A stretch of 64,000 nt of DNA. Source: a virus. The translations under genes were made by a program, and so were the position numbers. The stretch lies in UHGV virus genome UHGV-0293664. One strand, written 5' to 3'. Each line of letters starts with the position of its first letter. Position 1 is the first letter of the stretch. The notes under the pieces are model-generated. The model worked only from the letters and a program-made list of their open reading frames with translations. It was not told the origin of the DNA and ran no database searches. Shown here piece by piece: positions 5,218 through 62,378 of the stretch.

Positions 5218-5246
5218 AAAGCCCCGCTTCGGCGGGGTTTATTTTT
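5218..5246 (+). terminator. Rho-independent terminator
   Basis: CCCCGC-TTCG-GCGGGG hairpin followed by T-run. Confidence 0.8.
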
Positions 5247-5255
5247 ATGCTCAGA

Positions 5256-9590: not shown

Positions 9591-10631
9591 ATGTCAAAAC
9601 CTAGTTTTCCATTAGAGATTTGGGCAGAGGAGGATCAGGTTCTGCCTAACACCCACAGACAGAACAGGCTACGCCCGATTGATGATTTGTGGAGAAAAGG
9701 TTGGGATCTTGGTCAAAAGCCATCCTGTGAAGAACTTAACTATATTTTCAATATGCTCGGGACTTGGGCAAAATACATTGCTGACGAGCAGATCCCCGCT
9801 CAAGAAGGCCGCTATCTGGTACGTGATAATAACTTGAGTGATCTTTTAAACATCCCTGTTGCCCGTAGAAACCTTGGAATTATTACTAAGGAAGAGGCAG
9901 ACGCCAGGTATGTAAAAGTTACAGGTGATACAATGACAGGCCCATTGGGTTTGCAACGTATCAACTTTAAAGCTGCCGAGACAGATAAGGCTTGGATAGA
10001 GACAACTATTGGCCCAGATAAGACAACTCTTGACTTTGGGTTAAGTGATAATATTGGGGCGTTCGATGATGGTGGCACATCTACAGTGGATGCGTTCCGT
10101 TGGAGATTCCAGCCAACTCAGCCGGACATTAATCCAGAGTTCACTTTAATGTACCTGAACGCAATCACGGCTAATCGTGCGTTGTTGAAAGTGGTGGGCA
10201 ATGTTGAAGTTGTTGATAACATGCGGTGTAATAACCTCACCATTAGTAGCACAGCAACATTCACTAACTGCAATGTAGCCAGTCAGTTGACAGCTGGGTC
10301 AGTATATGTCAATGGCGGTGCAAGTTGTGATAGTATGGTTGTAAGAAGCCAGCATTGTGTTGTCGGTAACAGAAATGTGGTGCGCTCTGTGAATGGAGTG
10401 ACGGCTAACGGCAACGGCGATGTAACGATCACCATCCCACAGACAGGTGTACAGGATATCAGAATCGGTGCAAGACTTGTTGATGGCGTTTCTGAATCTC
10501 CAATCCGCAACGGATACGTTGTCACAGGTTGGCATTTTGGTGACAAAAAAGAGATGCGTGGTTCAACTTACTGGGCAGGACCTTTACAAAAACTTGTAAA
10601 TGGTCAATGGATCACTGTTAATTATGCATAG
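9591..10631 (+). CDS. Tail fibre / receptor-binding protein, paralog A
   Basis: 346 aa; N-term MSKPSFPLEIWA and C-term KLVNGQWITVNYA shared with 11646..12689. Confidence 0.65.
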   Translation: MSKPSFPLEIWAEEDQVLPNTHRQNRLRPIDDLWRKGWDLGQKPSCEELNYIFNMLGTWAKYIADEQIPAQEGRYLVRDNNLSDLLNIPVARRNLGIITKEEADARYVKVTGDTMTGPLGLQRINFKAAETDKAWIETTIGPDKTTLDFGLSDNIGAFDDGGTSTVDAFRWRFQPTQPDINPEFTLMYLNAITANRALLKVVGNVEVVDNMRCNNLTISSTATFTNCNVASQLTAGSVYVNGGASCDSMVVRSQHCVVGNRNVVRSVNGVTANGNGDVTITIPQTGVQDIRIGARLVDGVSESPIRNGYVVTGWHFGDKKEMRGSTYWAGPLQKLVNGQWITVNYA

Positions 10632-11645: not shown

Positions 11646-12689
11646 ATGACTAAACCAGTTATCCCTCTTGATATTTGGGCCAATCAGGATGTTGTGCTTG
11701 AAAATACGGGAGAGTTGAATAAATCTCAACCAAAAAAAGAAGAGAGATTGAAAGGTTGGGATATGACACAAAGAATGGCATGTGAAGTTGTTAACTTTGA
11801 ACTTCACATGCTTTCTGCGTGGTTGAAGCATTTAACAGAAGATGTTGTCCCAGGATGGGATAATAGATTCTTAAGGGTCACTAATAACCTAGCAGACGTT
11901 CCAGACAAAGCTGCTGCACGTCAAGTTCTCAATGTATACTCACCTGAAGAAATGGACGATCTATATGTTGACAAGTCTGGAGACATAATGACTCAGACTC
12001 AAACTTTAGGTCTTCAAAGAATCGAGTTTGCATCTGCGTCAACAGACAGTGCGGCAATATACACCACCATAACTCCAGACAAGACGACGATGGATTTCTG
12101 GATTATGGACAACATCGGTGGTGCTGACGGCACAGACCTTGATGATCCTTCTCACCAAATAGACGGGTTCCGTTGGAGATTTCAACCTTCTGGTGGGCAG
12201 CCTGTGTTTTCGGCTATGAAGCTCAATGCTATAACTGCCAACCGTGCAAGACTGGCTATCCAAGGAAATCTTGAATGTAACGATGCAAAAAGTTCCTCTG
12301 CAAATGCCAATGCGGTCACGATACCAAGAGCCACTGTTAACGGACAACAATCCTGCGGAAGCGCTCAAATAGGTGGAAGAGTTGATTGTAACGATGAAAC
12401 CGTTAGGGGCCAATATGCAACCGTTGGTGGAAGAAACGTGGTCCGCAGGGTAAATGGTAACAGCGCAGACGGTAGTGGTAACCTTACTATCCCTATGCCT
12501 AGCAGAGGGGTTGATGATGTAAGGATAGCGAACCGTTTCAAAACCACCTACAGAGAGTCAAGAGTCTACCCTGGACATGTGATGTGCTCTGGTAACTACG
12601 CCTATAAACACCCTTATCAAGGTGATTACTGGACAGGTGCTATCCAAAAACTTGTAAATGGTCAATGGATCACTATATCTTATGCTTAA
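11646..12689 (+). CDS. Tail fibre / receptor-binding protein, paralog B
   Basis: 347 aa; N-term MTKPVIPLDIWA and C-term KLVNGQWITISYA shared with 9591..10631. Confidence 0.65.
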   Translation: MTKPVIPLDIWANQDVVLENTGELNKSQPKKEERLKGWDMTQRMACEVVNFELHMLSAWLKHLTEDVVPGWDNRFLRVTNNLADVPDKAAARQVLNVYSPEEMDDLYVDKSGDIMTQTQTLGLQRIEFASASTDSAAIYTTITPDKTTMDFWIMDNIGGADGTDLDDPSHQIDGFRWRFQPSGGQPVFSAMKLNAITANRARLAIQGNLECNDAKSSSANANAVTIPRATVNGQQSCGSAQIGGRVDCNDETVRGQYATVGGRNVVRRVNGNSADGSGNLTIPMPSRGVDDVRIANRFKTTYRESRVYPGHVMCSGNYAYKHPYQGDYWTGAIQKLVNGQWITISYA

Positions 12690-31937: not shown

Positions 31938-31965
31938 CACCCCGCTTCGGCGGGGATTTTCTATT
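31938..31965 (+). terminator. Rho-independent terminator
   Basis: CCCCGC-TTCG-GCGGGG hairpin then T-rich tract; same hairpin as at 5218. Confidence 0.7.
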
Positions 31966-31975
31966 TGGAGTTATT

Positions 31976-38637: not shown

Positions 38638-38666
38638 GGCCCTGCCCGAAAGGGTGGGGCTTTTTG
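38638..38666 (+). terminator. Rho-independent terminator
   Basis: CCCTGCCC-GAAA-GGGTGGGG hairpin then TTTTT; duplicated at 49350. Confidence 0.75.
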
Positions 38667-49349: not shown

Positions 49350-49378
49350 AGCCCTGCCCGAAAGGGTGGGGCATTTTT
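49350..49378 (+). terminator. Rho-independent terminator
   Basis: CCCTGCCC-GAAA-GGGTGGGG hairpin then T-run; same as 38638. Confidence 0.75.
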
Positions 49379-52945: not shown

Positions 52946-53191
52946 TTTTACCTGCCAGGATATTTTAAAATCCTTAGAAAATCAGAAAATGGATCGAAAA
53001 CTAAAATGGATTTTTCAGGGCAGGCACGACGAGATGAACCACTCATCCTGTCGTTTGCACCATATTCCAGACCACCATTACAGATTTCCCGCACATGCTT
53101 ACATCCTTCTACTGGAACTTCCTCCGCTTGCCCTTGACCTTTTATGGTAATAATCCAACCACTATCTTGAAGTTGCGATGCAGCTTTTCAG

Positions 53192-53354
53192 GTACTCGAT
53201 CTGTTTTTCGTTTCAAAGATTGAATTTTCTGAAAATTTTTCTCGATAAATTTCTCAGTACTCGATCTGTTTTTCGTTTTCTGAATCGGATTTTCTGGAAA
53301 TCGTTCCGGCTCTCGACCTGAAATTTTTGGGGACGAAATCGATTTTTCGTTTTC
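53192..53354. repeat. Iteron-like direct repeats, three copies
   Basis: Repeat unit TCGATYTKTTTTTCGTTTTC at 53192-53214, 53257-53280 and 53334-53354 in AT-rich non-coding DNA. Confidence 0.7.
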
Positions 53355-53481
53355 AGAAATGGATTTTTAAAATTTCTATATGGGAATATTTTATGGGATA
53401 CTGTTTTATAGGAAATTGTTACGGAGGGTAATTAGCGTGCTAATTAAATTTATGAAATGCGAGGAGTTCTCATTTAGAATT

Positions 53482-53500
53482 TTGAATGATAATCATTCTC
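53482..53500. promoter_or_regulatory. Fur-box-like palindrome A
   Basis: TTGAATGATAATCATTCTC matches 15 of 19 positions of the E. coli Fur consensus; contains perfect palindrome GAATGAT-A-ATCATTC. Confidence 0.4.
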
Positions 53501-53844: not shown

Positions 53845-53994
53845 ATGAAAGGTAATGCTACTCGCCTGGAAAATGTAGTAATTGATGATACGGAAGCTAT
53901 CGCCCTGGTCGAGAAGGTTGAAACGGAAGCGCGGGAACATAAAGAAGAGTACGAAAAAATGGTAGTTAACCTGGCGGGGGCGATTCTATCATAA
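53845..53994 (+). CDS. Small hypothetical protein
   Basis: 49 aa from ATG 53845 with GAAGAGG RBS; first gene after the non-coding island. Confidence 0.4.
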   Translation: MKGNATRLENVVIDDTEAIALVEKVETEAREHKEEYEKMVVNLAGAILS

Positions 53995-54013
53995 AAATAA
54001 TTTAAAATAATCG

Positions 54014-54042
54014 TTGACAGCTCGGACAGCTATTGTTATTCT
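54014..54042 (+). promoter_or_regulatory. sigma70-like promoter
   Basis: TTGACA, 17-nt spacer, TATTCT. Confidence 0.5.
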
Positions 54043-54094
54043 TATCCTCGCAAGGTGAACAACACCACACCAATTAACAGAGAGGATAAAAATC

Positions 54095-54292
54095 ATGAAC
54101 GCCTACGGAATTAAAGTACGTCGCAACACCCGCCAGGTGGTCACCGATCAAATGGTTTGCCGGGTGGATGTAACCATCAACAACGGGCAAGGCCTTTATA
54201 AATTTCGTCGCGGTCATAGCTATACCCTGCAGCAGCTTAATCGTTGCGCCCTGACAAAAGGTCAGATCAACCACTGGTTTAATAAAAAATAA
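54095..54292 (+). CDS. Small basic protein
   Basis: 65 aa; GAGAGGA RBS. Confidence 0.5.
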   Translation: MNAYGIKVRRNTRQVVTDQMVCRVDVTINNGQGLYKFRRGHSYTLQQLNRCALTKGQINHWFNKK

Positions 54293-54295
54293 ATA

Positions 54296-54324
54296 TTGAC
54301 ATGTAGTCTGAAACAAAATATACT
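54296..54324 (+). promoter_or_regulatory. sigma70-like promoter
   Basis: TTGACA, 17-nt spacer, TATACT. Confidence 0.6.
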
Positions 54325-54356
54325 GAAAGCACAAAAGACACTAAGAGGATAAAATC

Positions 54357-54755
54357 ATGAAAACCACAACCTTTAATTTTGACAATGCTAACTTCTCTTT
54401 TTCTGATGTTAAAAGCTGCCGCCGTGATCGCGGATTCTACAAGGCCTATAATCTGGTTGTCTTGGACGATGATAATAATTTGCACGAAGTAGCGGAGATC
54501 CGGTACTATGCCGCCGCCAGCGGTAACACTCACTACTGTGTATTTTGGATTCACGACAACAAGAACAATAAGTACGGTTATACTGGCGGCAAGGCGAGCG
54601 GTCACGGTTATGATAAAGCCAACGCTGCACTTGAAAGCGCATTAAGTGCCATGGGAATCACTGCCGACGGCTGGATCTATGAAGAAGAGTTTTTGGCGGC
54701 ACTTGCTAACCGCTTGGGCTATAAAAAGCACATTGTAACGTGCGCCCACGAATAA
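54357..54755 (+). CDS. Hypothetical protein
   Basis: 132 aa; AAGAGGA RBS. Confidence 0.55.
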   Translation: MKTTTFNFDNANFSFSDVKSCRRDRGFYKAYNLVVLDDDNNLHEVAEIRYYAAASGNTHYCVFWIHDNKNNKYGYTGGKASGHGYDKANAALESALSAMGITADGWIYEEEFLAALANRLGYKKHIVTCAHE

Positions 54756-54768
54756 AAAAAAAAAATTA

Positions 54769-54796
54769 TTGACACGCTGCAAAATTAAAGTAAACT
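54769..54796 (+). promoter_or_regulatory. sigma70-like promoter
   Basis: TTGACA, 16-nt spacer, TAAACT; followed by GGCGGGAATATTTCCCGCC leader palindrome. Confidence 0.5.
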
Positions 54797-54844
54797 AGAC
54801 ACAAAAGGCGGGAATATTTCCCGCCAACACAAAGGAAAAAGATC

Positions 54845-55249
54845 ATGAATAAGAACGTACGCCGCATCATGAACGAGTTGGCAAACGATGAAAAAATTAT
54901 TGACATGCATTTGATCAACATTTGCCGCCGTTGTGTAACATATAACAACCGCGCCGCAAAAGCGCGTGAGATGAACGCAAAAGGTACCTTAAAGCCATTC
55001 CAGGTGGTGGTAAAGGCCATTAAAGATGTAACTAATACGGCAAACCAGGTACAGGGGAACACCAACGAGAGTACCAATATTGATCCGTCTTACGTAATGA
55101 AACGGATCCGGACTTGCAAGAATAAAGAGCAGGTGTATAACGTCATAGATTGGCTGGACTCCCTGGGTGATGTGGTTTACAATAGGTTTTCTGCAGCTAT
55201 CGAGATCCAGCTTGACAGATTAGACGGGAAAGTACTAAAAACTTATTGA
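54845..55249 (+). CDS. Hypothetical protein
   Basis: 134 aa; AAGGAAAAAG RBS. Confidence 0.55.
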   Translation: MNKNVRRIMNELANDEKIIDMHLINICRRCVTYNNRAAKAREMNAKGTLKPFQVVVKAIKDVTNTANQVQGNTNESTNIDPSYVMKRIRTCKNKEQVYNVIDWLDSLGDVVYNRFSAAIEIQLDRLDGKVLKTY

Positions 55250-55252
55250 GTT

Positions 55253-55297
55253 TATTTTTAGATGGCCTTGACTTCAGGGCCATCAATAAAGTAAACT
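55253..55297 (+). promoter_or_regulatory. Promoter with -35 inside palindromic operator, copy 1
   Basis: GATGGCC-TTGACT-N-GGCCATC then TAAACT; near-identical copies at 55875 and 59620. Confidence 0.6.
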
Positions 55298-55329
55298 AAC
55301 CACAATTGAGCGGAAAAGGAGGCTTAAAG

Positions 55330-55449
55330 ATGAGCACTACACGCCAGCACACAAAGGTAACTATTATCGTTTGCATCATTGGTTACATCCTGGCGCAAAT
55401 GTTGATGAGTAGCGCCAACAGTTTTGCAAAATTTTTCTTAAATTTTTAA
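55330..55449 (+). CDS. Small hydrophobic peptide
   Basis: 39 aa ORF below track cutoff; AAAGGAGG RBS; one predicted transmembrane helix. Confidence 0.4.
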   Translation: MSTTRQHTKVTIIVCIIGYILAQMLMSSANSFAKFFLNF

Positions 55450-55478
55450 TTGACAAGCTAACCCAAATCGGTATACTT
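55450..55478 (+). promoter_or_regulatory. sigma70-like promoter
   Basis: TTGACA, 16-17-nt spacer, TATACT; followed by GGGAAAACTTCCC leader palindrome. Confidence 0.55.
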
Positions 55479-55528
55479 AAACACGTAAACGGGAAAACTT
55501 CCCAAAACACACAAAAGGAGAAAACACC

Positions 55529-55870
55529 ATGACTACTATGACCGCCGAAGAAAAAGCCCTGCAGATCGCCGCTCTGAAAAAACAGATCGCAGACCTTGAG
55601 AATAAGATCGATAACTTTGAAATCGACGAGGACAAGTACGACGAAAACTATGATGAATGGCTAGACGAGGTTTATGGCGAAATTATGATCGGAAACATTT
55701 CTTTTCTTCCGTCGCGTATCCTCAAGGAGTTAGATCCTATCGCTTACCGCTGCGGATTTAGCGACTACATCGACAGCCTGGATATTGAGGACGATGAAGA
55801 GTACCAAGAATTGCAGACAGAGATTGAAGAAGTGAAAGAAGAGCTTTCAAAGCTGGAAGAAAACGAGTAA
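55529..55870 (+). CDS. Strongly acidic coiled-coil protein, candidate DNA mimic
   Basis: 113 aa; runs of Asp/Glu (IDEDKYDENYDEWLDE, DIEDDEEYQELQTEIEE). Confidence 0.55.
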   Translation: MTTMTAEEKALQIAALKKQIADLENKIDNFEIDEDKYDENYDEWLDEVYGEIMIGNISFLPSRILKELDPIAYRCGFSDYIDSLDIEDDEEYQELQTEIEEVKEELSKLEENE

Positions 55871-55874
55871 AATT

Positions 55875-55919
55875 TATTTTTAGATGGCCTTGACTCCAGG
55901 GCCATCAATAAAGTAAACT
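55875..55919 (+). promoter_or_regulatory. Promoter with -35 inside palindromic operator, copy 2
   Basis: Near-identical to 55253-55297. Confidence 0.6.
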
Positions 55920-55960
55920 TTATACTGTTAACACTGAACTACTGCAAAGGAGTTAAAACC

Positions 55961-56206
55961 ATGGCAGCACTAATCACCAAGTATTATGCCCCTACTAACA
56001 CCAAAAGCGCCCGTATCATGGTAAAAGGCTTCGGACGTAAAAAGGTTTACACCTGGGATTATGCCTTAGATACGGAAGACAACTACACCAACGCGATGAC
56101 CGATTTTATTAATGAGCTGAACACGCGGATCTTGACAAATTATAAAATTACCGATATTGCCTATATAGGGGAAGGCGGGATCTGTTTTGTCGGTATCGTC
56201 AAATAA
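55961..56206 (+). CDS. Small hypothetical protein
   Basis: 81 aa; AAGGAG RBS. Confidence 0.5.
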   Translation: MAALITKYYAPTNTKSARIMVKGFGRKKVYTWDYALDTEDNYTNAMTDFINELNTRILTNYKITDIAYIGEGGICFVGIVK

Positions 56207-56281
56207 ACTATTTTTTCGGTGGTCCTGGCTGCAGGGCCATCTATAAAGATAATTTATTAACACCGTGAAAGGAGAAAGTAC

Positions 56282-56635
56282 ATGATCAGCGGGGCTAGTT
56301 TTATTATTGGCGCTATTGCTACGGCTTTAATTGTAAACAAGATCCAATCTAAAAACGAAAAAGATAGCAACGCGCTCACAGAATACCCATTTTGGGTATT
56401 CAACGACAACGAAGACTACATAATCAAGTACAAGAATGAGAAGGGCGACCAGGTAACACCGCGACCGATCCCGGCTTACAAAATGCAAGAAACACTATAC
56501 CGCCTAAAGGCTGGAGGCGCAAAAATCGTAGACTTTTGGGGATATGATTGCAAGGATCAGGAGGTTATAAAACGGCGTATCCGGGCGATTCAGGCAAATA
56601 TCGAGATCAGTAAGGGGGGAAGTTATGAAAATTAA
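56282..56635 (+). CDS. Small membrane-anchored protein
   Basis: 117 aa; N-terminal hydrophobic helix; AAAGGAGAAAG RBS. Confidence 0.5.
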   Translation: MISGASFIIGAIATALIVNKIQSKNEKDSNALTEYPFWVFNDNEDYIIKYKNEKGDQVTPRPIPAYKMQETLYRLKAGGAKIVDFWGYDCKDQEVIKRRIRAIQANIEISKGGSYEN

Positions 56636-56822
56636 TTTCGAAAAAATTGTAAAGCGCCCCCACGATTCCGAAGAGCTGCCGGAACGCCGCCAGCGCAACA
56701 ATAAACTGAATAAACCGAAAAGATTTGGGAAGATCTGGCGGAATCATTATGATCGTAAACTGCCTGGCCTACTCTTGGAACGTGAACGACAGGCGGAACG
56801 ATACCGCCACAAAGGCAAATAA
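56625..56822 (+). CDS. Small basic protein
   Basis: 65 aa; Arg/Lys-rich; overlaps upstream gene by 11 nt. Confidence 0.45.
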   Translation: MKINFEKIVKRPHDSEELPERRQRNNKLNKPKRFGKIWRNHYDRKLPGLLLERERQAERYRHKGK

Positions 56823-56828
56823 CAACCA

Positions 56829-56858
56829 ACGCCCCGCCATTGTGCGGGGCTTTTTATT
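56829..56858 (+). terminator. Rho-independent terminator
   Basis: CCCCGC...GCGGGG hairpin then TTTTTATTT. Confidence 0.75.
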
Positions 56859-57002
56859 TCTATCCTACGAATAGCGCCCCTGGTTGGTCCCACAAACGCC
56901 ACAAAAGCCCCTACCTATGCAATCCCCTTTCTTAGTCTGAAAACATCGCCCAGGGCCGTTTTATGGTGTTAAAAATAGCATTGACAGTGATTTTATTTAA
57001 AG

Positions 57003-57031
57003 CTTGACACCTTGGAATAGCCCAGATATAC
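57003..57031 (+). promoter_or_regulatory. sigma70-like promoter
   Basis: TTGACA, 17-nt spacer, TATACT. Confidence 0.6.
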
Positions 57032-57067
57032 TAACCACATCAAAGCAAGAAGGAAGGAGTAAACGCC

Positions 57068-57328
57068 ATGCGTAAATTAAAAAATTTTGATAAAGTCGAT
57101 ATTGTCCTGAATAATTTTTACTACTGCAATAATAAAGCCGTTTGGTGGCGTGATAGTTCCACCGATAAAGTTAAAGCGCGCTTTCTCCAGGGGCACTGGC
57201 AAGGCCGCCCAGTGATTAAGATCCTGGGGCAATCGGTAGCGTTTAAAAATTGCCGCCGTGTTGATGACGTTGAAGAGATTCTAAACATTTTACGCCACAA
57301 TAATTTAAAAAATAGTGTTGACAAGTAA
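57068..57328 (+). CDS. Small hypothetical protein
   Basis: 86 aa; AGGAAGGAG RBS. Confidence 0.5.
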   Translation: MRKLKNFDKVDIVLNNFYYCNNKAVWWRDSSTDKVKARFLQGHWQGRPVIKILGQSVAFKNCRRVDDVEEILNILRHNNLKNSVDK

Positions 57329-57346
57329 ATCTTGATAAGTATACTT
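57318..57346 (+). promoter_or_regulatory. sigma70-like promoter
   Basis: TTGACA, 17-nt spacer, ATACTT; followed by GGCGGGAAAACTTCCCGCC leader palindrome. Confidence 0.55.
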
Positions 57347-57402
57347 AAACACACAGGCGGGAAAACTTCCCGCCACTAACAAAGAAAATAGGAGAAAATA
57401 TC

Positions 57403-58026
57403 ATGACCACCGTTAACATTACCGCAGGTTACAATTTATCTTTCGACGTGCTGACCGACGAACAAAAAGAAAAAGCTATTGAAATGGTCCGCGAAAGAGA
57501 AGAACACAGCGGAGAGGATTTTTTCGCAGAAAGTGTAATTGAATATTATAAAGAACAAGTTTTTCCAGAGTACGGCCTTGAAGATACCGAAGTACATTGG
57601 TCCGGATTTTGGTGTCAAGGCGATGGCGCGTCAATTAGTGCTGAAAATGTAGACTTAGAAAAATTCTTGCGTAAAGTAAAGGCCCTGACCAAGTTCCGAT
57701 CAATTCGTCACTTGTTCGGCACAATGCACGATGGCGAGTTATCAGCCAGTATTGAACGCGACAAGTACAGCCATTACAGCCATGAAAACACTGTAAACGG
57801 ATACATTGATACCACCTGGATAAATCTGACCGCCAAACAAGAAAACAAAGTGGAAGACCTGGAAGAGCTGATCACCGAGACGGCACGGGAGCTATCCCGT
57901 AAGGTTTACGTAGACCTGGAGGAGGCCTATCTAGAACAGTTCACTACCGAAAACCTGATCGATCTTATTAAGGCTAATGATTGGCGGTTTGATGTAGATG
58001 AACATGGCGAGATGACTTTTTCATAA
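57403..58026 (+). CDS. Acidic protein, candidate anti-restriction or DNA-mimic protein
   Basis: 207 aa; Asp/Glu-rich throughout; no confident family assignment. Confidence 0.55.
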   Translation: MTTVNITAGYNLSFDVLTDEQKEKAIEMVREREEHSGEDFFAESVIEYYKEQVFPEYGLEDTEVHWSGFWCQGDGASISAENVDLEKFLRKVKALTKFRSIRHLFGTMHDGELSASIERDKYSHYSHENTVNGYIDTTWINLTAKQENKVEDLEELITETARELSRKVYVDLEEAYLEQFTTENLIDLIKANDWRFDVDEHGEMTFS

Positions 58027-58034
58027 ATAAAGTG

Positions 58035-58062
58035 TTGCAATAACCTAAAAACCTGCTATATT
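58035..58062 (+). promoter_or_regulatory. sigma70-like promoter
   Basis: TTGCAA, 16-nt spacer, TATATT; followed by GGGGCAAGACGTTTGCCCC hairpin. Confidence 0.45.
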
Positions 58063-58115
58063 AAAACTCAAGGGGCAAGACGTTTGCCCCCACACAAAAC
58101 AAAGAGGAAAACATC

Positions 58116-58496
58116 ATGAAAAACACTACTAAAGCTATTGACACCGTTATGTTTAACCTGGTTACCTTTCGCGAGGATATGAAAGATCTTCCGCGTGAAA
58201 CAGTGTGCGACCATATCGAAAACTATCGCAAACTAATCAAAAAGTTGCCTTTAAAACGTGATCAGTATGCGGCTAACGCCATGCTTAATGCCATGATCAA
58301 AAAGATGATCCAGTGTGATTTAACTCTGGCCTATGATTATGCAGGTGGTCGTTTTGCAGTATACAATCAGCCCGTGCCTGGTATGAGCACCACAGAAGAA
58401 TTGCACGCGTTAAATCTAAAACAAGACGTGTGGGATAGCATGCCTCGCGTGGTGGTATGGGTAGAAAGCGGGAAGATTTACGGCGATAATTTTTAA
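58116..58496 (+). CDS. Hypothetical protein
   Basis: 126 aa; AAGAGGAAAAC RBS. Confidence 0.55.
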   Translation: MKNTTKAIDTVMFNLVTFREDMKDLPRETVCDHIENYRKLIKKLPLKRDQYAANAMLNAMIKKMIQCDLTLAYDYAGGRFAVYNQPVPGMSTTEELHALNLKQDVWDSMPRVVVWVESGKIYGDNF

Positions 58497-58504
58497 TCAG
58501 ATAA

Positions 58505-58538
58505 CAGGCGGCGGCATATTTGCCGCCGCCTTATTGTT
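58505..58538 (+). terminator. Rho-independent terminator
   Basis: GGCGGCGGCA-TATT-TGCCGCCGCC hairpin then T-rich tract. Confidence 0.75.
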
Positions 58539-58566
58539 AAACAGAACTGCAAAAGAGGTACATAGA

Positions 58567-58938
58567 ATGGAATTTATTATTTTGGCTGTATTGGTTGCCT
58601 TGTTTAACGCCTGGATTGCTGGCAAGATGGGCAGATCCGCCTTTTTATGGTTTATTATATCTATTTTCCTGGGGGTGGTTGCAACTATTGTATTGGTTAT
58701 CCTTGCAATTGTTGACAAGGGGAATAATAGAAAGGGTAAAGTATTTTCAGACCTGTACGACGCTCAAACGTTTGTCAACGCATATTATAGTGATCTTCCA
58801 GTCTCCCTACGCTGCAGCCTGGCACAACAAGTTTTCGATGAGGCTAAAACCAGAGATCAAGCCCATGAGATATGTTTAACTGAGGCGGATCGCCTATTTG
58901 AGAGGAATAGAAAATATGTGGGCCAACCGTTTAAATAA
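58567..58938 (+). CDS. Membrane protein with two transmembrane helices
   Basis: 123 aa from ATG 58567 with AGAGG RBS; two long hydrophobic segments. Confidence 0.5.
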   Translation: MEFIILAVLVALFNAWIAGKMGRSAFLWFIISIFLGVVATIVLVILAIVDKGNNRKGKVFSDLYDAQTFVNAYYSDLPVSLRCSLAQQVFDEAKTRDQAHEICLTEADRLFERNRKYVGQPFK

Positions 58939-59161
58939 TGCCACGTTAATTAATCCCTTTAGTGAAGATTTGAAGCCAGCCGCCTGGCGTGATGGATTCA
59001 ATACCGAACGCTTTATTTTCAGGCCTGATCTTGAGGAATTTTATAACAATGGATCGAACAACGACAGAGATAATTTTTCTTGTGATGTGCGTGGTGATGG
59101 TACTCCTGGGGGCCATTGTAAACCACGTCACTACTACCAGGGGGAAAGGGGGAGACGATGA
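58916..59161 (+). CDS. Small hypothetical protein
   Basis: 81 aa from ATG 58916; overlaps upstream gene end. Confidence 0.4.
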   Translation: MWANRLNNATLINPFSEDLKPAAWRDGFNTERFIFRPDLEEFYNNGSNNDRDNFSCDVRGDGTPGGHCKPRHYYQGERGRR

Positions 59162-59277
59162 CACCCAAGGATAAGCCACGCACCAATAAGGCGCGCCGTG
59201 TTATGGTGTGGCTGGAGATCATCGCCCTTGAAATATTGCTAGGCGTAGGGATGTACTTTATCGCTGTAAGTAACTAA
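59158..59277 (+). CDS. Small hydrophobic peptide
   Basis: 39 aa ORF below track cutoff; GGGGGAGA RBS; ATGA overlap; one hydrophobic helix. Confidence 0.35.
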   Translation: MTPKDKPRTNKARRVMVWLEIIALEILLGVGMYFIAVSN

Positions 59278-59279
59278 GA

Positions 59280-59315
59280 ACGGCCCCCCGATCATGGGGG
59301 CCTATCTTTAAAAAA
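59280..59315 (+). terminator. Rho-independent terminator
   Basis: GGCCCCC...GGGGGCC hairpin, then A-run and T-run. Confidence 0.65.
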
Positions 59316-59332
59316 ATTTTTCTTCCGGGGTG

Positions 59333-59361
59333 TTGCAATCCGGTCCGGAATGTGGATAATA
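59333..59361 (+). promoter_or_regulatory. sigma70-like promoter
   Basis: TTGCAA, 17-nt spacer, ATAATA; TGTGGATAA overlaps the -10. Confidence 0.45.
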
Positions 59362-59415
59362 ACAATCAACGGGGAGCTAATCCCACCACCACAAAAACCA
59401 GAAAGGAGAAACAAA

Positions 59416-59616
59416 ATGAGCAACAATATCCGCGTTATTAACTTCAAAAAAGAAGAAAAAATTGCCGTGCTGATTGACGGTCAAGAAATCTTCAAGGGCG
59501 ACTATGAAGATCATCAAACGGCGATTAGTATCACCCGCGTGATTGGTTACCATAATTTCTACCCCCAAGGTGCTGAGGCAGCAGTTAAACGAATCAAAGA
59601 GATTGTAGGCCTGTAA
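59416..59616 (+). CDS. Small hypothetical protein
   Basis: 66 aa from ATG 59416 with AAAGGAGA RBS. Confidence 0.5.
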   Translation: MSNNIRVINFKKEEKIAVLIDGQEIFKGDYEDHQTAISITRVIGYHNFYPQGAEAAVKRIKEIVGL

Positions 59617-59619
59617 AAT

Positions 59620-59666
59620 TTATTTTTAGATGGCCTTGACTCCGGGGGCCATCAATAAAGTAAATT
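59620..59666 (+). promoter_or_regulatory. Promoter with -35 inside palindromic operator, copy 3
   Basis: GATGGCC-TTGACT-N-GGCCATC then TAAATT. Confidence 0.55.
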
Positions 59667-59708
59667 TAAACCCTGTTAAAATAATCAGTGCAAAAAGGAG
59701 TAATGATC

Positions 59709-60008
59709 ATGTTTATACCCGCCAATAATCTTTATTTCTTTGATGGTCAAATCGTAGACGGCGTGGAAGTTGAGATCACCGGGTGCCCTGGTGGTCAGGC
59801 TATGACTTTTCGGAATAATGCTTTTGATGATTCTCATATCGTTATGAGAATGGAAGTTACGAAGCTGGACGACAAGAAAACACTTATTGACTATTCTGTG
59901 AAAGATCATCCAGACTACCGCATGATCCATGGCGATTTGTGCAGTGTTGACCGTGACAAGGTGGGCGGCATTGTGATCGCTATTGTGAACGATGTTTTCT
60001 CAAACTAA
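59709..60008 (+). CDS. Small hypothetical protein
   Basis: 99 aa from ATG 59709, 8 nt after AAAGGAG; ATG 59703 also possible. Confidence 0.5.
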   Translation: MFIPANNLYFFDGQIVDGVEVEITGCPGGQAMTFRNNAFDDSHIVMRMEVTKLDDKKTLIDYSVKDHPDYRMIHGDLCSVDRDKVGGIVIAIVNDVFSN

Positions 60009-60025
60009 TTTCAGCAGGTGATTTT

Positions 60026-60376
60026 ATGAAAGTCAAACTATATTACCTTAATGAGCTTAACCCCCTTGCCCAGGTCCGCGCCCTGGCTAATACCTTGATT
60101 TGTGAGAAATCTGCATATTGTGTTGAGCTTAACGCCATGCGTGAACGTCTCAAAGGGGGTTACTTCGACATCCATGCTGCAATCAACGGCCTGAATATGG
60201 AATTTATACGCTTACGTAACAGCCGCCGGAATCTGGCAAGAATGGAACAAGATCCGGCCCACCTTCGTAAGCTGGTTATTGAAAATCATCTGATGTTTAA
60301 TGCCGAGGGTGATTATTACCATTTTCACCGCAAACGCTGGTACCGTGGCGGCAATACAGGCAAGAATGCAAAATAA
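60026..60376 (+). CDS. Hypothetical protein
   Basis: 116 aa; weak RBS. Confidence 0.45.
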   Translation: MKVKLYYLNELNPLAQVRALANTLICEKSAYCVELNAMRERLKGGYFDIHAAINGLNMEFIRLRNSRRNLARMEQDPAHLRKLVIENHLMFNAEGDYYHFHRKRWYRGGNTGKNAK

Positions 60377-60411
60377 GGCCCCAGGCAGGGCCTGCAGCGA
60401 TATAATCACAT

Positions 60412-60445
60412 AAAGGCTATGCGGTTGCATGGCCTTTATTATTTT
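60412..60445 (+). terminator. Rho-independent terminator
   Basis: AAAGGCTATGC...GCATGGCCTTT stem then ATTATTTT. Confidence 0.6.
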
Positions 60446-60493
60446 AGCGTTACAGCGACCCCCAAGGCGCTTAAAAAAATTTTAAAGAAGTAC

Positions 60494-60522
60494 TTGCATC
60501 AAGCCCTACAATATGGATAATA
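60494..60522 (+). promoter_or_regulatory. sigma70-like promoter
   Basis: TTGCAT, 17-nt spacer, ATAATA. Confidence 0.45.
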
Positions 60523-60577
60523 GGACGTGTCGGGGGGCGGCCCCCAATCATTAACCGGATAGATAGGAGTTAAAACC

Positions 60578-60862
60578 ATGGCTATTGTTACCGCTGGCGA
60601 TGTAGTAGAAATGGAAGCAAAATACTTAAAAGCGGGTATGCATATCCTACGCAACGATCTTGAACTGGTCCTGACAATGGTTGACTATAACCCAGGGCAA
60701 GATTATCCAAGTGTTGACTACTTTTTTAGGTATGTTGATGAAGAATTAAAAGAGGATGAGGCTTATCAGGGCGAATTCTGTAATTTCTTTTGCTCTGATG
60801 AGGTTGTAAAAGTTATCTATCAACCTGGCGTACCTTTCCCGTTGCACGCTATCAATAAATAA
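60578..60862 (+). CDS. Small acidic protein
   Basis: 94 aa; TAGGAG RBS. Confidence 0.5.
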   Translation: MAIVTAGDVVEMEAKYLKAGMHILRNDLELVLTMVDYNPGQDYPSVDYFFRYVDEELKEDEAYQGEFCNFFCSDEVVKVIYQPGVPFPLHAINK

Positions 60863-60917
60863 ACCTGGCGGGGCCGAAAAGGCCCCCAATTATGAAAATA
60901 AAGAGAGGTAAATCATC

Positions 60918-61151
60918 ATGATGGAACAAATTAAACGCGCTGAGGCTATTAATGGCAATGTGATCTACTTTGTCAGCAAAAACGAAAAAGGCGTACCATA
61001 TGCGGCGGTAATAGTACAGCCTGACGGTGATTATTGGTTTACTGTGTACGGCGCTTATTCTTTCGGGCGTCCGGTGCATGATAGAATTTTGAAAGTAGCG
61101 AACCCCACCGGGAAGAATATCACGGCAGAAAAATTTTTTGAAAATAATTGA
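60918..61151 (+). CDS. Small hypothetical protein
   Basis: 77 aa; AGAGAGG RBS. Confidence 0.5.
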   Translation: MMEQIKRAEAINGNVIYFVSKNEKGVPYAAVIVQPDGDYWFTVYGAYSFGRPVHDRILKVANPTGKNITAEKFFENN

Positions 61152-61176
61152 CAACGTTTTAAATTAGTTTAAGATG
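61148..61176 (+). promoter_or_regulatory. sigma70-like promoter
   Basis: TTGACA then TAAGAT; shares TAAGATGTATCACGTAGGG with promoter at 61997. Confidence 0.5.
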
Positions 61177-61232
61177 TATCACGTAGGGGAGACAAGCGCC
61201 CTATTAAACGCAACAGGAAGAGGATAAACACC

Positions 61233-61472
61233 ATGAAAAGCAATAAAGGTTATAACGGTTACAAAAACAAAACTCATTGGAATGTAAGCCTTTGGATTAA
61301 TAACGATGAGTCATTGTACCGGTTGGCCCAAGGCTTTATCAACGCTAATGCTAATCGTAATGATGCGGCGCGGGATATGATGCTTTTTCTGGAGCTAACC
61401 GGACAAGATAAGACCCCGGACGGCTTCAAGTACAGCACTACGGCGATCCGTGCCGCGATGGTTGGAATGTGA
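61233..61472 (+). CDS. Small hypothetical protein
   Basis: 79 aa; GGAAGAGGA RBS. Confidence 0.5.
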   Translation: MKSNKGYNGYKNKTHWNVSLWINNDESLYRLAQGFINANANRNDAARDMMLFLELTGQDKTPDGFKYSTTAIRAAMVGM

Positions 61473-61481
61473 TAAAATAGC

Positions 61482-61509
61482 TTGACACTGTTTTTTATTC
61501 TGGTATAGT
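61482..61509 (+). promoter_or_regulatory. sigma70-like promoter
   Basis: TTGACA, 16-nt spacer, TATAGT. Confidence 0.55.
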
Positions 61510-61651
61510 TTATCACATAGGACGGCACGACAGAGTACTACGGATTCGAGGGTGTCCGGTGCGGTGAACTTGCTCGCGACCTTAAGGAAGATCCAGACCT
61601 GGAAGATCTGCCCATCACCGTAAACGGGAAAACTTACGTAAACCGTTAACC

Positions 61652-61786
61652 ATGAGAAAGATAATCATCACCTTGGGGATTGTGGCGGGATCGCTGGCGC
61701 TCTTTCCCCTTATGGTTAGATATGTGCTGATCAGTATTGTCCTGATAGTTAGTGATTTATTGGAAACGGTTGGCACCTTGTTTTAA
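61652..61786 (+). CDS. Small hydrophobic peptide
   Basis: 44 aa ORF below track cutoff; almost entirely hydrophobic; weak RBS. Confidence 0.3.
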   Translation: MRKIIITLGIVAGSLALFPLMVRYVLISIVLIVSDLLETVGTLF

Positions 61787-61798
61787 AGAGCGGTAAAA

Positions 61799-61990
61799 AT
61801 GAATATCGAACAAGTTAGAAAGGTATTGGCGGTACTGCGTTATCATAATCATAGAAAGGTCATAGACGATCCTGATTATGTCGATTCAAGCCTGGAAGGG
61901 GATACACTACAAGCCATAAGCAACATGCAAGAATTGCTAAAGCGCATGACAGAGAAAAACAGATCTGATTATATAGGTGACGAGATCTAA
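61799..61990 (+). CDS. Small hypothetical protein
   Basis: 63 aa; weak RBS. Confidence 0.4.
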   Translation: MNIEQVRKVLAVLRYHNHRKVIDDPDYVDSSLEGDTLQAISNMQELLKRMTEKNRSDYIGDEI

Positions 61991-61996
61991 AATAGC

Positions 61997-62024
61997 TTGC
62001 ACAATGTATCTGATAGTGTAAGAT
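61997..62024 (+). promoter_or_regulatory. sigma70-like promoter
   Basis: TTGCAC then TAAGAT; paralogous to promoter at 61148. Confidence 0.45.
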
Positions 62025-62074
62025 GTATCACGTAGGGCGGCAATAGTGCCGCTCACAACTGGAAGGAAAACACC

Positions 62075-62278
62075 ATGACTACAGCTAACCGCCTGATCGC
62101 CGTCCTGAACAAAGCAAAGGCTAACCGCCTGGATGTTCAAATCAAAGAGCAAGCAAATGGCGAGATCCTTGCTACGGTGTCCGATGGCGGTTATGTATCG
62201 GAATCATTTTTATCAGGGAGCTTAGATCATCTTGTTTGGAAATTAGAAATTATCGTGGAGGATATGCAGATCATCTAA
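62075..62278 (+). CDS. Small hypothetical protein
   Basis: 67 aa; GGAAGGA RBS. Confidence 0.5.
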   Translation: MTTANRLIAVLNKAKANRLDVQIKEQANGEILATVSDGGYVSESFLSGSLDHLVWKLEIIVEDMQII

Positions 62279-62283
62279 TCTTT

Positions 62284-62318
62284 ACAAAACAGGGCTTGTT
62301 TTTATCCTGTTTTTTGTT
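62284..62318 (+). terminator. Possible rho-independent terminator
   Basis: AAAACAGG...CCTGTTTT stem with long loop then TTTTTGTT. Confidence 0.4.
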
Positions 62319-62330
62319 ATACTTGTTTCA

Positions 62331-62378
62331 CGGCAGGCACCTGGCGACGGGGGGAGACAATCACCGTGGGTGCCTGTC
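62331..62378. repeat. GC-rich conserved element, copy 3 (inverted)
   Basis: Reverse complement aligns closely with 53655-53692; GGCAGGCACC...GGTGCCTGTC can form about a 10-bp stem. Confidence 0.6.

Follow-up and report, generated by a model that had tools for sequence, protein, structure and literature searches.

An intercistronic hairpin repeated in the early region of an rV5-like Vequintavirus and its likeness to the PeSL cassettes of T4-type phages

Introduction

The closest described counterparts of the element reported here are the PeSL (promoter-early stem-loop) cassettes of T4-type phages (Arbiol et al. 2010, PMC2839356; Comeau et al. 2014, PMC4122927). A PeSL starts at a stop codon in an AT-rich tract, carries sigma-70 boxes and a stem-loop with G-T pairs, and ends with a Shine-Dalgarno sequence and a start codon; in one subclass, the stem-loop overlaps the -35 box (PMC2839356, PMC4122927). 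Moreover, PeSLs mediate recombination-driven modular shuffling, in the form of indels and cassette replacements between close relatives (PMC2839356, PMC4122927). A second comparison is offered by the RNase III sites of the T7 early operon (R0.3, R0.5, R1, R1.1 and R1.3), which are near-identical hairpins located between early cistrons, right after the stop codons. When folded, they show a GC-rich upper stem of about 10 bp with G.U pairs, a loop of 4–5 nt, an internal loop and a lower stem, about two helical turns altogether, and the minor E. coli promoters B and C lie in two of the intergenic regions that hold these sites. To our knowledge, the T7 RNase III sites are not known to carry a promoter -35 box in the apical loop. 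In the N4-type hairpin promoters and the Frpo-like single-stranded DNA promoters the -35 box is rebuilt by the stem, whereas in the element described here it lies in the loop, and the sizes of stem and loop differ as well.

In the literature, we found no usable transcription start data for rV5 or Vequintavirus. Table S4 of the rV5 genome paper, with its 33 promoters and 20 terminators, does not include the element, and the Certrevirus paper describes sigma-70-like early promoters with no hairpin. Here we analysed a stretch of 64,000 nucleotides from the UHGV virus genome UHGV-0293664 (the window), which belongs to an rV5-like Vequintavirus with 93–95% identity to APECc02, slur16, HdK5, FFH2 and others. 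An earlier note on this DNA had described three near-identical promoters whose -35 hexamer sits inside a palindrome. The feature is real and non-random, and it is best read as a regulatory cassette of the PeSL kind, already known from other phages.

Results

Four copies of the element between small early genes

A pattern search with 3–6 nt allowed after TTGACT gave three near-identical copies in the window, all on the + strand (55261-55284, 55883-55906 and 59629-59653), where none is expected from shuffled sequence. The formula given for them in the earlier note, GATGGCC-TTGACT-N-GGCCATC, has no match when taken literally, even with 3 mismatches; the real gap after TTGACT is 4–5 nt. Thus the distance between the arms GATGGCC and GGCCATC is 10–11 nt, made of TTGACT plus 4 nt in copies 1 and 2 or plus 5 nt in copy 3, and the site reads TTTATTTTTA-GATGGCC-TTGACT-YC(R)G-GGCCATC-AATAAAGTAAAYT in copies 1–3. 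Aligning the copies together with their flanks, as the note had proposed, showed that the 5' flank TTTATTTTTA and the 3' flank AATAAAGTAAA are common to all three, so that the flanks are as repeated as the core. The repeat on the + strand therefore stands, and the count of three does not: a fourth, diverged copy, GGTGGTCCTGGCTGCAGGGCCATC at 56205-56256, had been missed and was found by a repeat search (about 56195-56254) and by a covariance model. The copies and their parts are as follows.

55248..55299, + strand: element copy 1, a 52-nt bipartite hairpin with an embedded predicted promoter (covariance model 77.3 bits)
55249..55258, + strand: 5' arm of the outer stem of copy 1, AGTTTATTTT, which pairs with 55288-55297
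55261..55284, + strand: inner stem-loop of copy 1, GATGGCCTTG / loop ACTT / CAGGGCCATC, which holds the 7-bp palindrome
55268..55273, + strand: -35-like hexamer TTGACT of copy 1, with TT and G in the stem and A, C and T in the apical loop
55288..55297, + strand: 3' arm of the outer stem of copy 1, AAAGTAAACT, including the -10-like TAAACT (55292-55297)
55870..55921, + strand: element copy 2 (covariance model 77.0 bits), downstream gene 55961-56206
55883-55906, 55890-55895 and 55914-55919, + strand: inner stem-loop, -35 and -10 of copy 2
56205..56256, + strand: element copy 4, diverged (covariance model 69.6 bits, fold -20.0 kcal/mol), downstream gene 56282-56635
56218-56241, + strand: inner stem of copy 4, GGTGGTCCTG/CAGGGCCATC, with G.U pairs
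56248-56253, + strand: -10-like hexamer GATAAT of copy 4, in which the -35 has decayed to CTGGCT
59616..59668, + strand: element copy 3 (covariance model 70.2 bits), start of the downstream gene near 59704-59710
59629-59635 and 59647-59653, 59636-59641, 59661-59666, + strand: arms, -35 and -10 (TAAATT) of copy 3

All four copies are on the + strand and in gaps between co-directional small early ORFs, within one stretch of 4.4 kb (55248-59668). Each element starts 0–5 nt from the upstream stop codon, abutting or overlapping it, and ends about 20–25 nt before the RBS of the next ORF, with RBS and ATG 20–45 nt 3' of the element. Copy 1 begins at the TGA stop (55247-55249) of gene 54845-55249. In copies 2 and 3 the first base is also the final base of a TAA stop, 55870 for copy 2 (stop 55868-55870, gene 55529-55870) and 59616 for copy 3 (stop 59614-59616, gene 59350-59616), while the start of copy 4 falls inside the TAA stop (56204-56206) of gene 55961-56206. 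The covariance model found no further copy in the window or in the remaining ~74 kb of the genome, taken from the relative APECc02, and in the phi92-like locus it found only the transferred copy described below. Rfam covariance models gave no match at the elements up to E = 5. The E. coli genomes have no match to the element, and a host REP-like or prophage origin was rejected on this ground. A scan of IMG/VR with the 3' half of the element returned only one rV5-like contig and one chance match (L004), and after this poor yield the relatives for comparison were drawn from the GenBank phage collection. About 20 entries in GenBank that bear the name 'Campylobacter phage' (UNVERIFIED and unannotated, e.g. 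MG065644.1 and MG065655.1) are 92–97% identical to E. coli rV5-like phages over the same early region, and judging by this identity their host assignment looks doubtful.

Other repeated sequences were seen in the window. The 348-bp non-coding gap 53138-53485 contains three direct repeats of about 50 nt (GTACTCGATCTGTTTTTCGTTT...) at 53192-53241, 53257-53306 and 53331-53380, with 65–74-nt spacing and extensive predicted structure; from these features it looks like an iteron, origin or regulatory region, and the map in the rV5 paper includes a 'non-coding' box. The neighbouring ORFs 9591-10631 and 11646-12689, of about 346 aa each, have 3'-terminal segments that are 84–85% alike over 26–63 nt (10568-10630 / 12626-12688 and 10089-10114 / 12162-12187), and are probably paralogous tail-fibre-like genes. 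In addition, near-identical terminator hairpins occur in pairs at distant sites (38639-38665 and 49351-49377; 5222-5249 and 31940-31967; GCCCTGCCCGAAAGGGTGGGGCTTTTT and CCCCGCTTCGGCGGGG plus a T-run), so that regulatory hairpins are repeated elsewhere in the genome too.

A bipartite hairpin on the sense strand

The 7-bp inverted repeat is present as the note had reported, and its pairing runs on well beyond these 7 bp: it is the core of a 52-nt bipartite hairpin with a 10-bp inner stem and a 10-bp outer stem, the latter formed by the AT-rich flanks with the '-10' included. In the + strand RNA, the outer stem is AU-rich, has 8–10 bp and pairs UUUAUUUU with AAAGUAAA. A 2x3 internal loop in the RNA fold separates it from the GC-rich inner stem of 10 bp, GAUGGCCUUG/CAGGGCCAUC, which includes one U.G pair and carries an apical loop of 4–5 nt. 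The + strand RNA folds with -20.2 kcal/mol (z about -5 to -6), copy 1 gave -20 to -25 kcal/mol (z -6.3), and copy 4 takes the same shape with -20.0 kcal/mol. The - strand RNA reaches only -8 to -14 kcal/mol, because the G.U pairs of the + strand turn into C.A mismatches, and the covariance model scores the four copies at 70–78 bits on the + strand versus 30–42 bits on the - strand. The DNA folds weakly (-11.6/-9.9 kcal/mol, and -6.9/-4.4 kcal/mol in case of copy 4), and a cruciform or another hairpin at the DNA level is held unlikely in view of these energies, especially that of copy 4.

The four orthologous sites of 16 related genomes and the copies of the window were aligned, which gave 32 distinct sequences, and RNAalifold on these sequences independently returned the same structure of 20 pairs. 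Over the 20 pairs, 98.6% of the cells are paired (n = 32), a value that none of 500 shuffles attained, and slid controls gave 36–61%; the covariation score over the 32 sequences is 0.217 versus 0.127 in shuffles, and the covariation stems from few events, namely the divergence of copy 4 from copies 1–3, the changes within copy 4, and the differences between copies 1 and 3. The outer stem (columns 3-12:45-54) is 97.5% paired, and four of its pairs have compensatory changes on both sides, namely 4:53 (AU/GC/GU), 5:52 (UA/CG), 7:50 (UA/AU/GU/GC) and 8:49 (AU/UA). The inner helix is 99.7% paired (n = 32), with changes that are one-sided only and always wobble-compatible (A-U to G.U, C-G to U.G, U.G to C-G). 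No double compensatory change was seen in it among the 32 sequences, which leaves room for a sequence-specific recognition of the inner stem.

Copy 4 deserves a separate description. In the relatives its arms are kept, and its loop and -10-like hexamer vary, with compensation: the -35 reads CTGGCT, CTGGTT or CTGGTA, and the -10-like hexamer drifts from GATAAT to GATAGT and GACAGT, with compensating changes in the partner arm. This pattern indicates that in copy 4 the hairpin is maintained rather than the promoter, and copy 4 is best regarded as an older paralogue in which the hairpin has been kept and the promoter largely lost.

Promoter-like hexamers inside the hairpin

In copies 1 and 2 the consensus scan placed TTGACT-N18-TAAACT at about 30 nt before the downstream RBS, with a score of 9/12, a class of match of which about half in the region are expected by chance; in copy 3 of the window the spacer is 19 nt, from an extra G in the loop. 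Copies 1–3 of the relatives all carry TTGAC, with one exception (TTGATAA in L003), loop positions 23–24 take any base, and position 6 of the hexamer is T, A, G or C, so that the element of HdK5 has a perfect TTGACA. Moreover, the U.G wobble formed by T22, with which TTGAC begins, persists throughout copies 1–3, although a C-G pair is tolerated there in copy 4. Both hexamers lie inside the hairpin, and pairing alone therefore explains their conservation in part; in copy 4 the hairpin persists without a -35. The -10 region AAAGTAAAYT has four perfect matches in the 64 kb, which are the three near-identical element copies and one hairpin-less promoter of the same early region. This promoter, and a second one that bounds the exchanged cassette described below, are listed here.

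54769..54796, + strand: hairpin-less canonical early promoter TTGACA-N16-TAAACT with the exact AAAGTAAACT -10 region (54787-54796), used as comparison promoter
55450..55477, + strand: canonical early promoter TTGACA-N16-TATACT, the left boundary of the cassette 55449-55923 found in phage KKE7M

A promoter of phage phi92, TTGCAA-N16-TAAACT, shares AATAAAGTAAACT and likewise lacks a hairpin, and the element of KKE7M stands exactly at the position of this phi92 promoter. The region as a whole is dense in strong sigma-70 promoters of the type TTGACA-N16/17-TATAYT (54296, 55450, 57004, 57318, 61482 and 63147) and has a few canonical terminators. From these sequence features we infer that copies 1–3 are sigma-70-type early promoters, in agreement with the reading of the earlier note, and the T-rich 5' arm of the outer stem of copy 1 would double as an AT-rich, UP-like promoter region. 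The annotations of the relatives differ from one another: copies 2 and 3 are annotated as promoter (a PhagePromoter prediction) in the GenBank record of Gotham, copies 4 and 3 as a 45-nt terminator in that of Murica, and the record of HdK5 has nothing annotated at the element sites.

The same early region contains a second cassette family, in which a GC hairpin (GGCGGGAAnnTTCCCGCC) lies in the 5' UTR, about 10 nt 3' of a canonical promoter TTGACA-N16/17-TATAYT and ahead of the RBS. Its sites are 54769-54825, 55450-55508 and 57318-57376 in the window and the phi92 locus L019 4527-8191, and in the early region of phi92 nearly every intergenic gap has this layout of promoter and 5'-UTR hairpin. 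These cassettes share with the element the early region, the position from stop codon to RBS and, in one case (54769-54796), the -10 context, and they too serve as crossover points, the left junction of KKE7M being inside such a promoter. They differ in that their hairpin is 3' of the -10 and in the promoter's own transcript, while the hairpin of the element is upstream of the predicted start.

Recombination between copies and cassette exchange

The suggestion of the earlier note that the copies could drive recombination is borne out by the relatives. Phage phiWec189 aligns to 53864-55297 and 55870-61153 of the window, and the two alignments overlap by 50 bp in its own coordinates. This overlap is a single hybrid element with the left flank of copy 1 and the right flank of copy 2, and the intervening 622 bp with two small genes are missing. 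A 200-nt probe across the hybrid junction also matches in one piece in ECP26, ECP32, ime and magaca. Thus a clean deletion between copy 1 and copy 2 is present in at least five relatives (phiWec189 and these four), and its carriers show two different left-flank haplotypes, which suggests recurrence or further recombination. Furthermore, loop variants are common to copies of one genome, for example ACC in copies 1 and 2 of HdK5 and V18, and this sharing suggests gene conversion.

A cassette exchange was found in KKE7M, a Justusliebigvirus (phi92-like, Stephanstirmvirinae), which carries 55449-55923 of the window at 94.9% identity amid an otherwise unrelated neighbourhood. The segment consists of a promoter, a 113-aa gene and copy 2, and stands in place of phi92 gp234. 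Its left crossover is inside the promoter spacer (TTGACAAGATAACTAAAAT|), and its right crossover is inside the -10 region, AATAAAGTAAA.

Not every rearrangement of the region is at an element. The lab-evolved rV5_ev146 (L002, LR699804.1) has one close copy left, with deletions of 54836-55341 and 56760-62358 (window coordinates). Neither deletion is bounded by a pair of elements, so this genome was rejected as evidence for element-driven recombination; at the junction of the first deletion there is an overlap of about 16 bp (microhomology). The two deletions took away about 0.5 kb and about 5.6 kb of early sequence together with element copies 1 and 3, so that these early genes and two elements are dispensable under laboratory conditions. 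A breakpoint at the element in O157 typing phage 4 was set aside as uninformative, being either a rearrangement or a join in a partial genome. The 116-aa ORF 60026-60376 (window 60002-60365) is absent from several relatives, including Gotham and O157 typing phage 4; the matches of many records end at about 60001-60022, and this polymorphism is not bounded by the element. In addition, the 5' UTR about 20 nt downstream of copy 3 (59670-59700) has two alleles among the relatives, ...AAAATAATCAGTGCAAAAAGGAG versus ...AAAATACCACGCAGTTAACAAGGAG (L010, L011, L012, L014 and L016 compared), around which the element and the downstream gene remain homologous.

Discussion

Comparison with the known systems

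The element resembles PeSLs in being repeated between the genes of an early region rich in ORFans (hyperplastic), and in its ends, with a stop codon and an AT-rich tract 5' of the -35 and a Shine-Dalgarno sequence and a start codon 3'. Sigma-70 boxes are found in the form of TTGACT-N18-TAAACT (9/12), except in copy 4 with its CTGGCT. A stable stem-loop with G-T pairs covers the -35, and is here supported by covariation. Recombination between copies is seen in the 622-bp deletion of at least five relatives and in the KKE7M exchange. There are also differences. The element occurs in Vequintavirus, whereas PeSLs occur in T4-type phages; it has four copies in 4.4 kb, while PeSLs number dozens; and its stem is not a polyG/polyC tract. 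Its hairpin is bipartite and wraps the entire promoter, so that the T-rich upstream tract pairs with the -10 region, and the covariation support for a sense-strand RNA is a further distinction. The element has no sequence homology to PeSLs and is placed with them by architecture, with its activities predicted here, whereas those of PeSLs were assayed.

As to the T7 sites, the element likewise forms a dsRNA hairpin of about 20 bp (10 + 10 bp) with an internal loop (2x3) between early cistrons. There is no sequence similarity between them, and RNase III cleavage of the element is proposed from this analogy. Moreover, individual promoters seem to be numerous among the early genes here, while the early genes of T7 form one long operon.

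Proposed role of the element and its alternatives

Taking these data together, we consider it likely that the element is a PeSL-type cassette, which combines an early promoter, a stem-loop acting on read-through RNA and a recombination linker. As DNA, copies 1–3 would serve as a host sigma-70 early promoter for the next small gene, composed of the T-rich upstream tract, the -35 TTGACN, an 18-nt spacer and the -10 TAAAYT. As RNA, read-through from the upstream gene would transcribe the 52 nt, which would then fold into the 20-bp bipartite hairpin from the stop codon on; since the predicted start is downstream of the hairpin, the hairpin would form only in RNA that reads through from the upstream gene. 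Its most likely role is to define the 3' end of the upstream message or to protect it. Two helical turns, an internal loop and a G.U-bearing GC-rich upper stem, as at the T7 intercistronic sites, lead us to infer attenuation and/or an RNase III-type processing in the internal loop as the putative function. In addition, the copies of about 50 nt are near-identical and thus act as homologous-recombination linkers, and recombination between them deletes or swaps the gene cassettes in between.

More tentatively, and as a possibility to which we would give a minor share of our confidence, the 52 nt may be under dual selection, as a duplex sigma-70 early promoter and as an insulating or RNase III-type processing hairpin in read-through RNA, and may be a portable linker across subfamilies. 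The kept U.G wobbles would then be a compromise between the promoter code and the RNA code, and the module would let gene cassettes move from Vequintavirinae to Stephanstirmvirinae.

A rather doubtful alternative is that the element is an RNA hairpin only, which would act between the cistrons of a polycistronic early transcript as an RNase III-type processing site, as an attenuator or by stabilising 3' ends; it would then resemble a sigma-70 promoter for no other reason than that its stem is AU-rich and TTGAC happens to fall in its loop. The 20-bp hairpin indeed accounts for the whole conserved unit, and its geometry (a 10-bp upper stem with G.U pairs, a 4-nt loop, an internal loop and a lower stem) fits the T7 early-operon RNase III sites. 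The hairpins begin at stop codons, in operons that have canonical promoters upstream and no intervening terminators, and copy 4 has kept the hairpin without a -35 and with a -10-like hexamer decayed to GACAGT under compensation by the partner arm. However, the A and C of TTGAC in the loop are fixed in copies 1–3, whereas the neighbouring loop bases take all four nucleotides, and these copies retain a U.G wobble at the initial T of TTGAC, where the structure would also accept C-G. Furthermore, the identical -10 region is in use in hairpin-less promoters, and the element of KKE7M replaces a bona fide promoter position, all of which speaks for a promoter within the hairpin.

That the element is an intrinsic (Rho-independent) terminator, as the Murica annotation of copies 3 and 4 with 45-nt terminators has it, is improbable. 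It is true that a stable GC-rich hairpin stands directly 3' of stop codons, and that the stem-loop of a PeSL cut reporter expression like a strong terminator (PMC2839356). However, the GC-rich hairpin is not followed immediately by a U-tract, the inner stem being followed by AAUAAAG and the full hairpin by at most three U's, and classical termination is therefore unlikely. The T-rich tract is on the wrong (5') side, and the consensus terminator scan misses the element sites, yet calls other terminators nearby. In HdK5 and rV5, terminators are annotated in the region and none of them at the element sites, and some genes just downstream have no other obvious promoters.

Least probable, and in our judgement very much so, is the palindromic operator proposed in the earlier note, at which a dimeric phage or host regulator would bind GATGGCC/GGCCATC, occlude the -35 and co-regulate the downstream genes: although the inner arms are extremely conserved in copies 1–3 of all 16 related genomes, with no double compensatory change, and the overlap with the -35 is a classical repressor position, the two half-sites are not symmetric at a fixed spacing (10 nt, but 11 nt in copy 3 of the window and in L003 copy 1, with a centre-to-centre distance of 17–18 bp that would be off helical phase for a simple dimer); copy 4 (GGTGGTCC) and FFH2 copy 1 (GATGGTC) are altered in one arm only, to wobble-compatible bases, and pair only via G.T wobbles, so that their half-sites are asymmetric as duplex DNA; and the complementarity extends into the covarying AU-rich outer stem, with a strong strand asymmetry in RNA fold energy and model score. 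Such spacing, wobbles, outer-stem compensation and strand asymmetry are characteristic of an RNA hairpin on the sense strand and not of a DNA palindrome that a protein recognises.

Significance

The PeSL-type reading resolves the conflict between the GenBank records of Gotham and Murica, which label one sequence 'promoter' and 'terminator', respectively. Being compact and supported by covariation, the element is well suited as a test case of nucleotides shared by a promoter and an RNA structure, and its copies are well-defined sites for engineering or deleting early accessory genes. A concrete transfer of a cassette into a phi92-like phage is documented. If the reading is true, the PeSL idea, namely that small promoter/stem-loop cassettes provide transcriptional insulation for early genes and serve as recombination linkers in modular gene shuffling, would extend from the T4-type phages to the rV5-like group, which is widely used in therapy and biocontrol.
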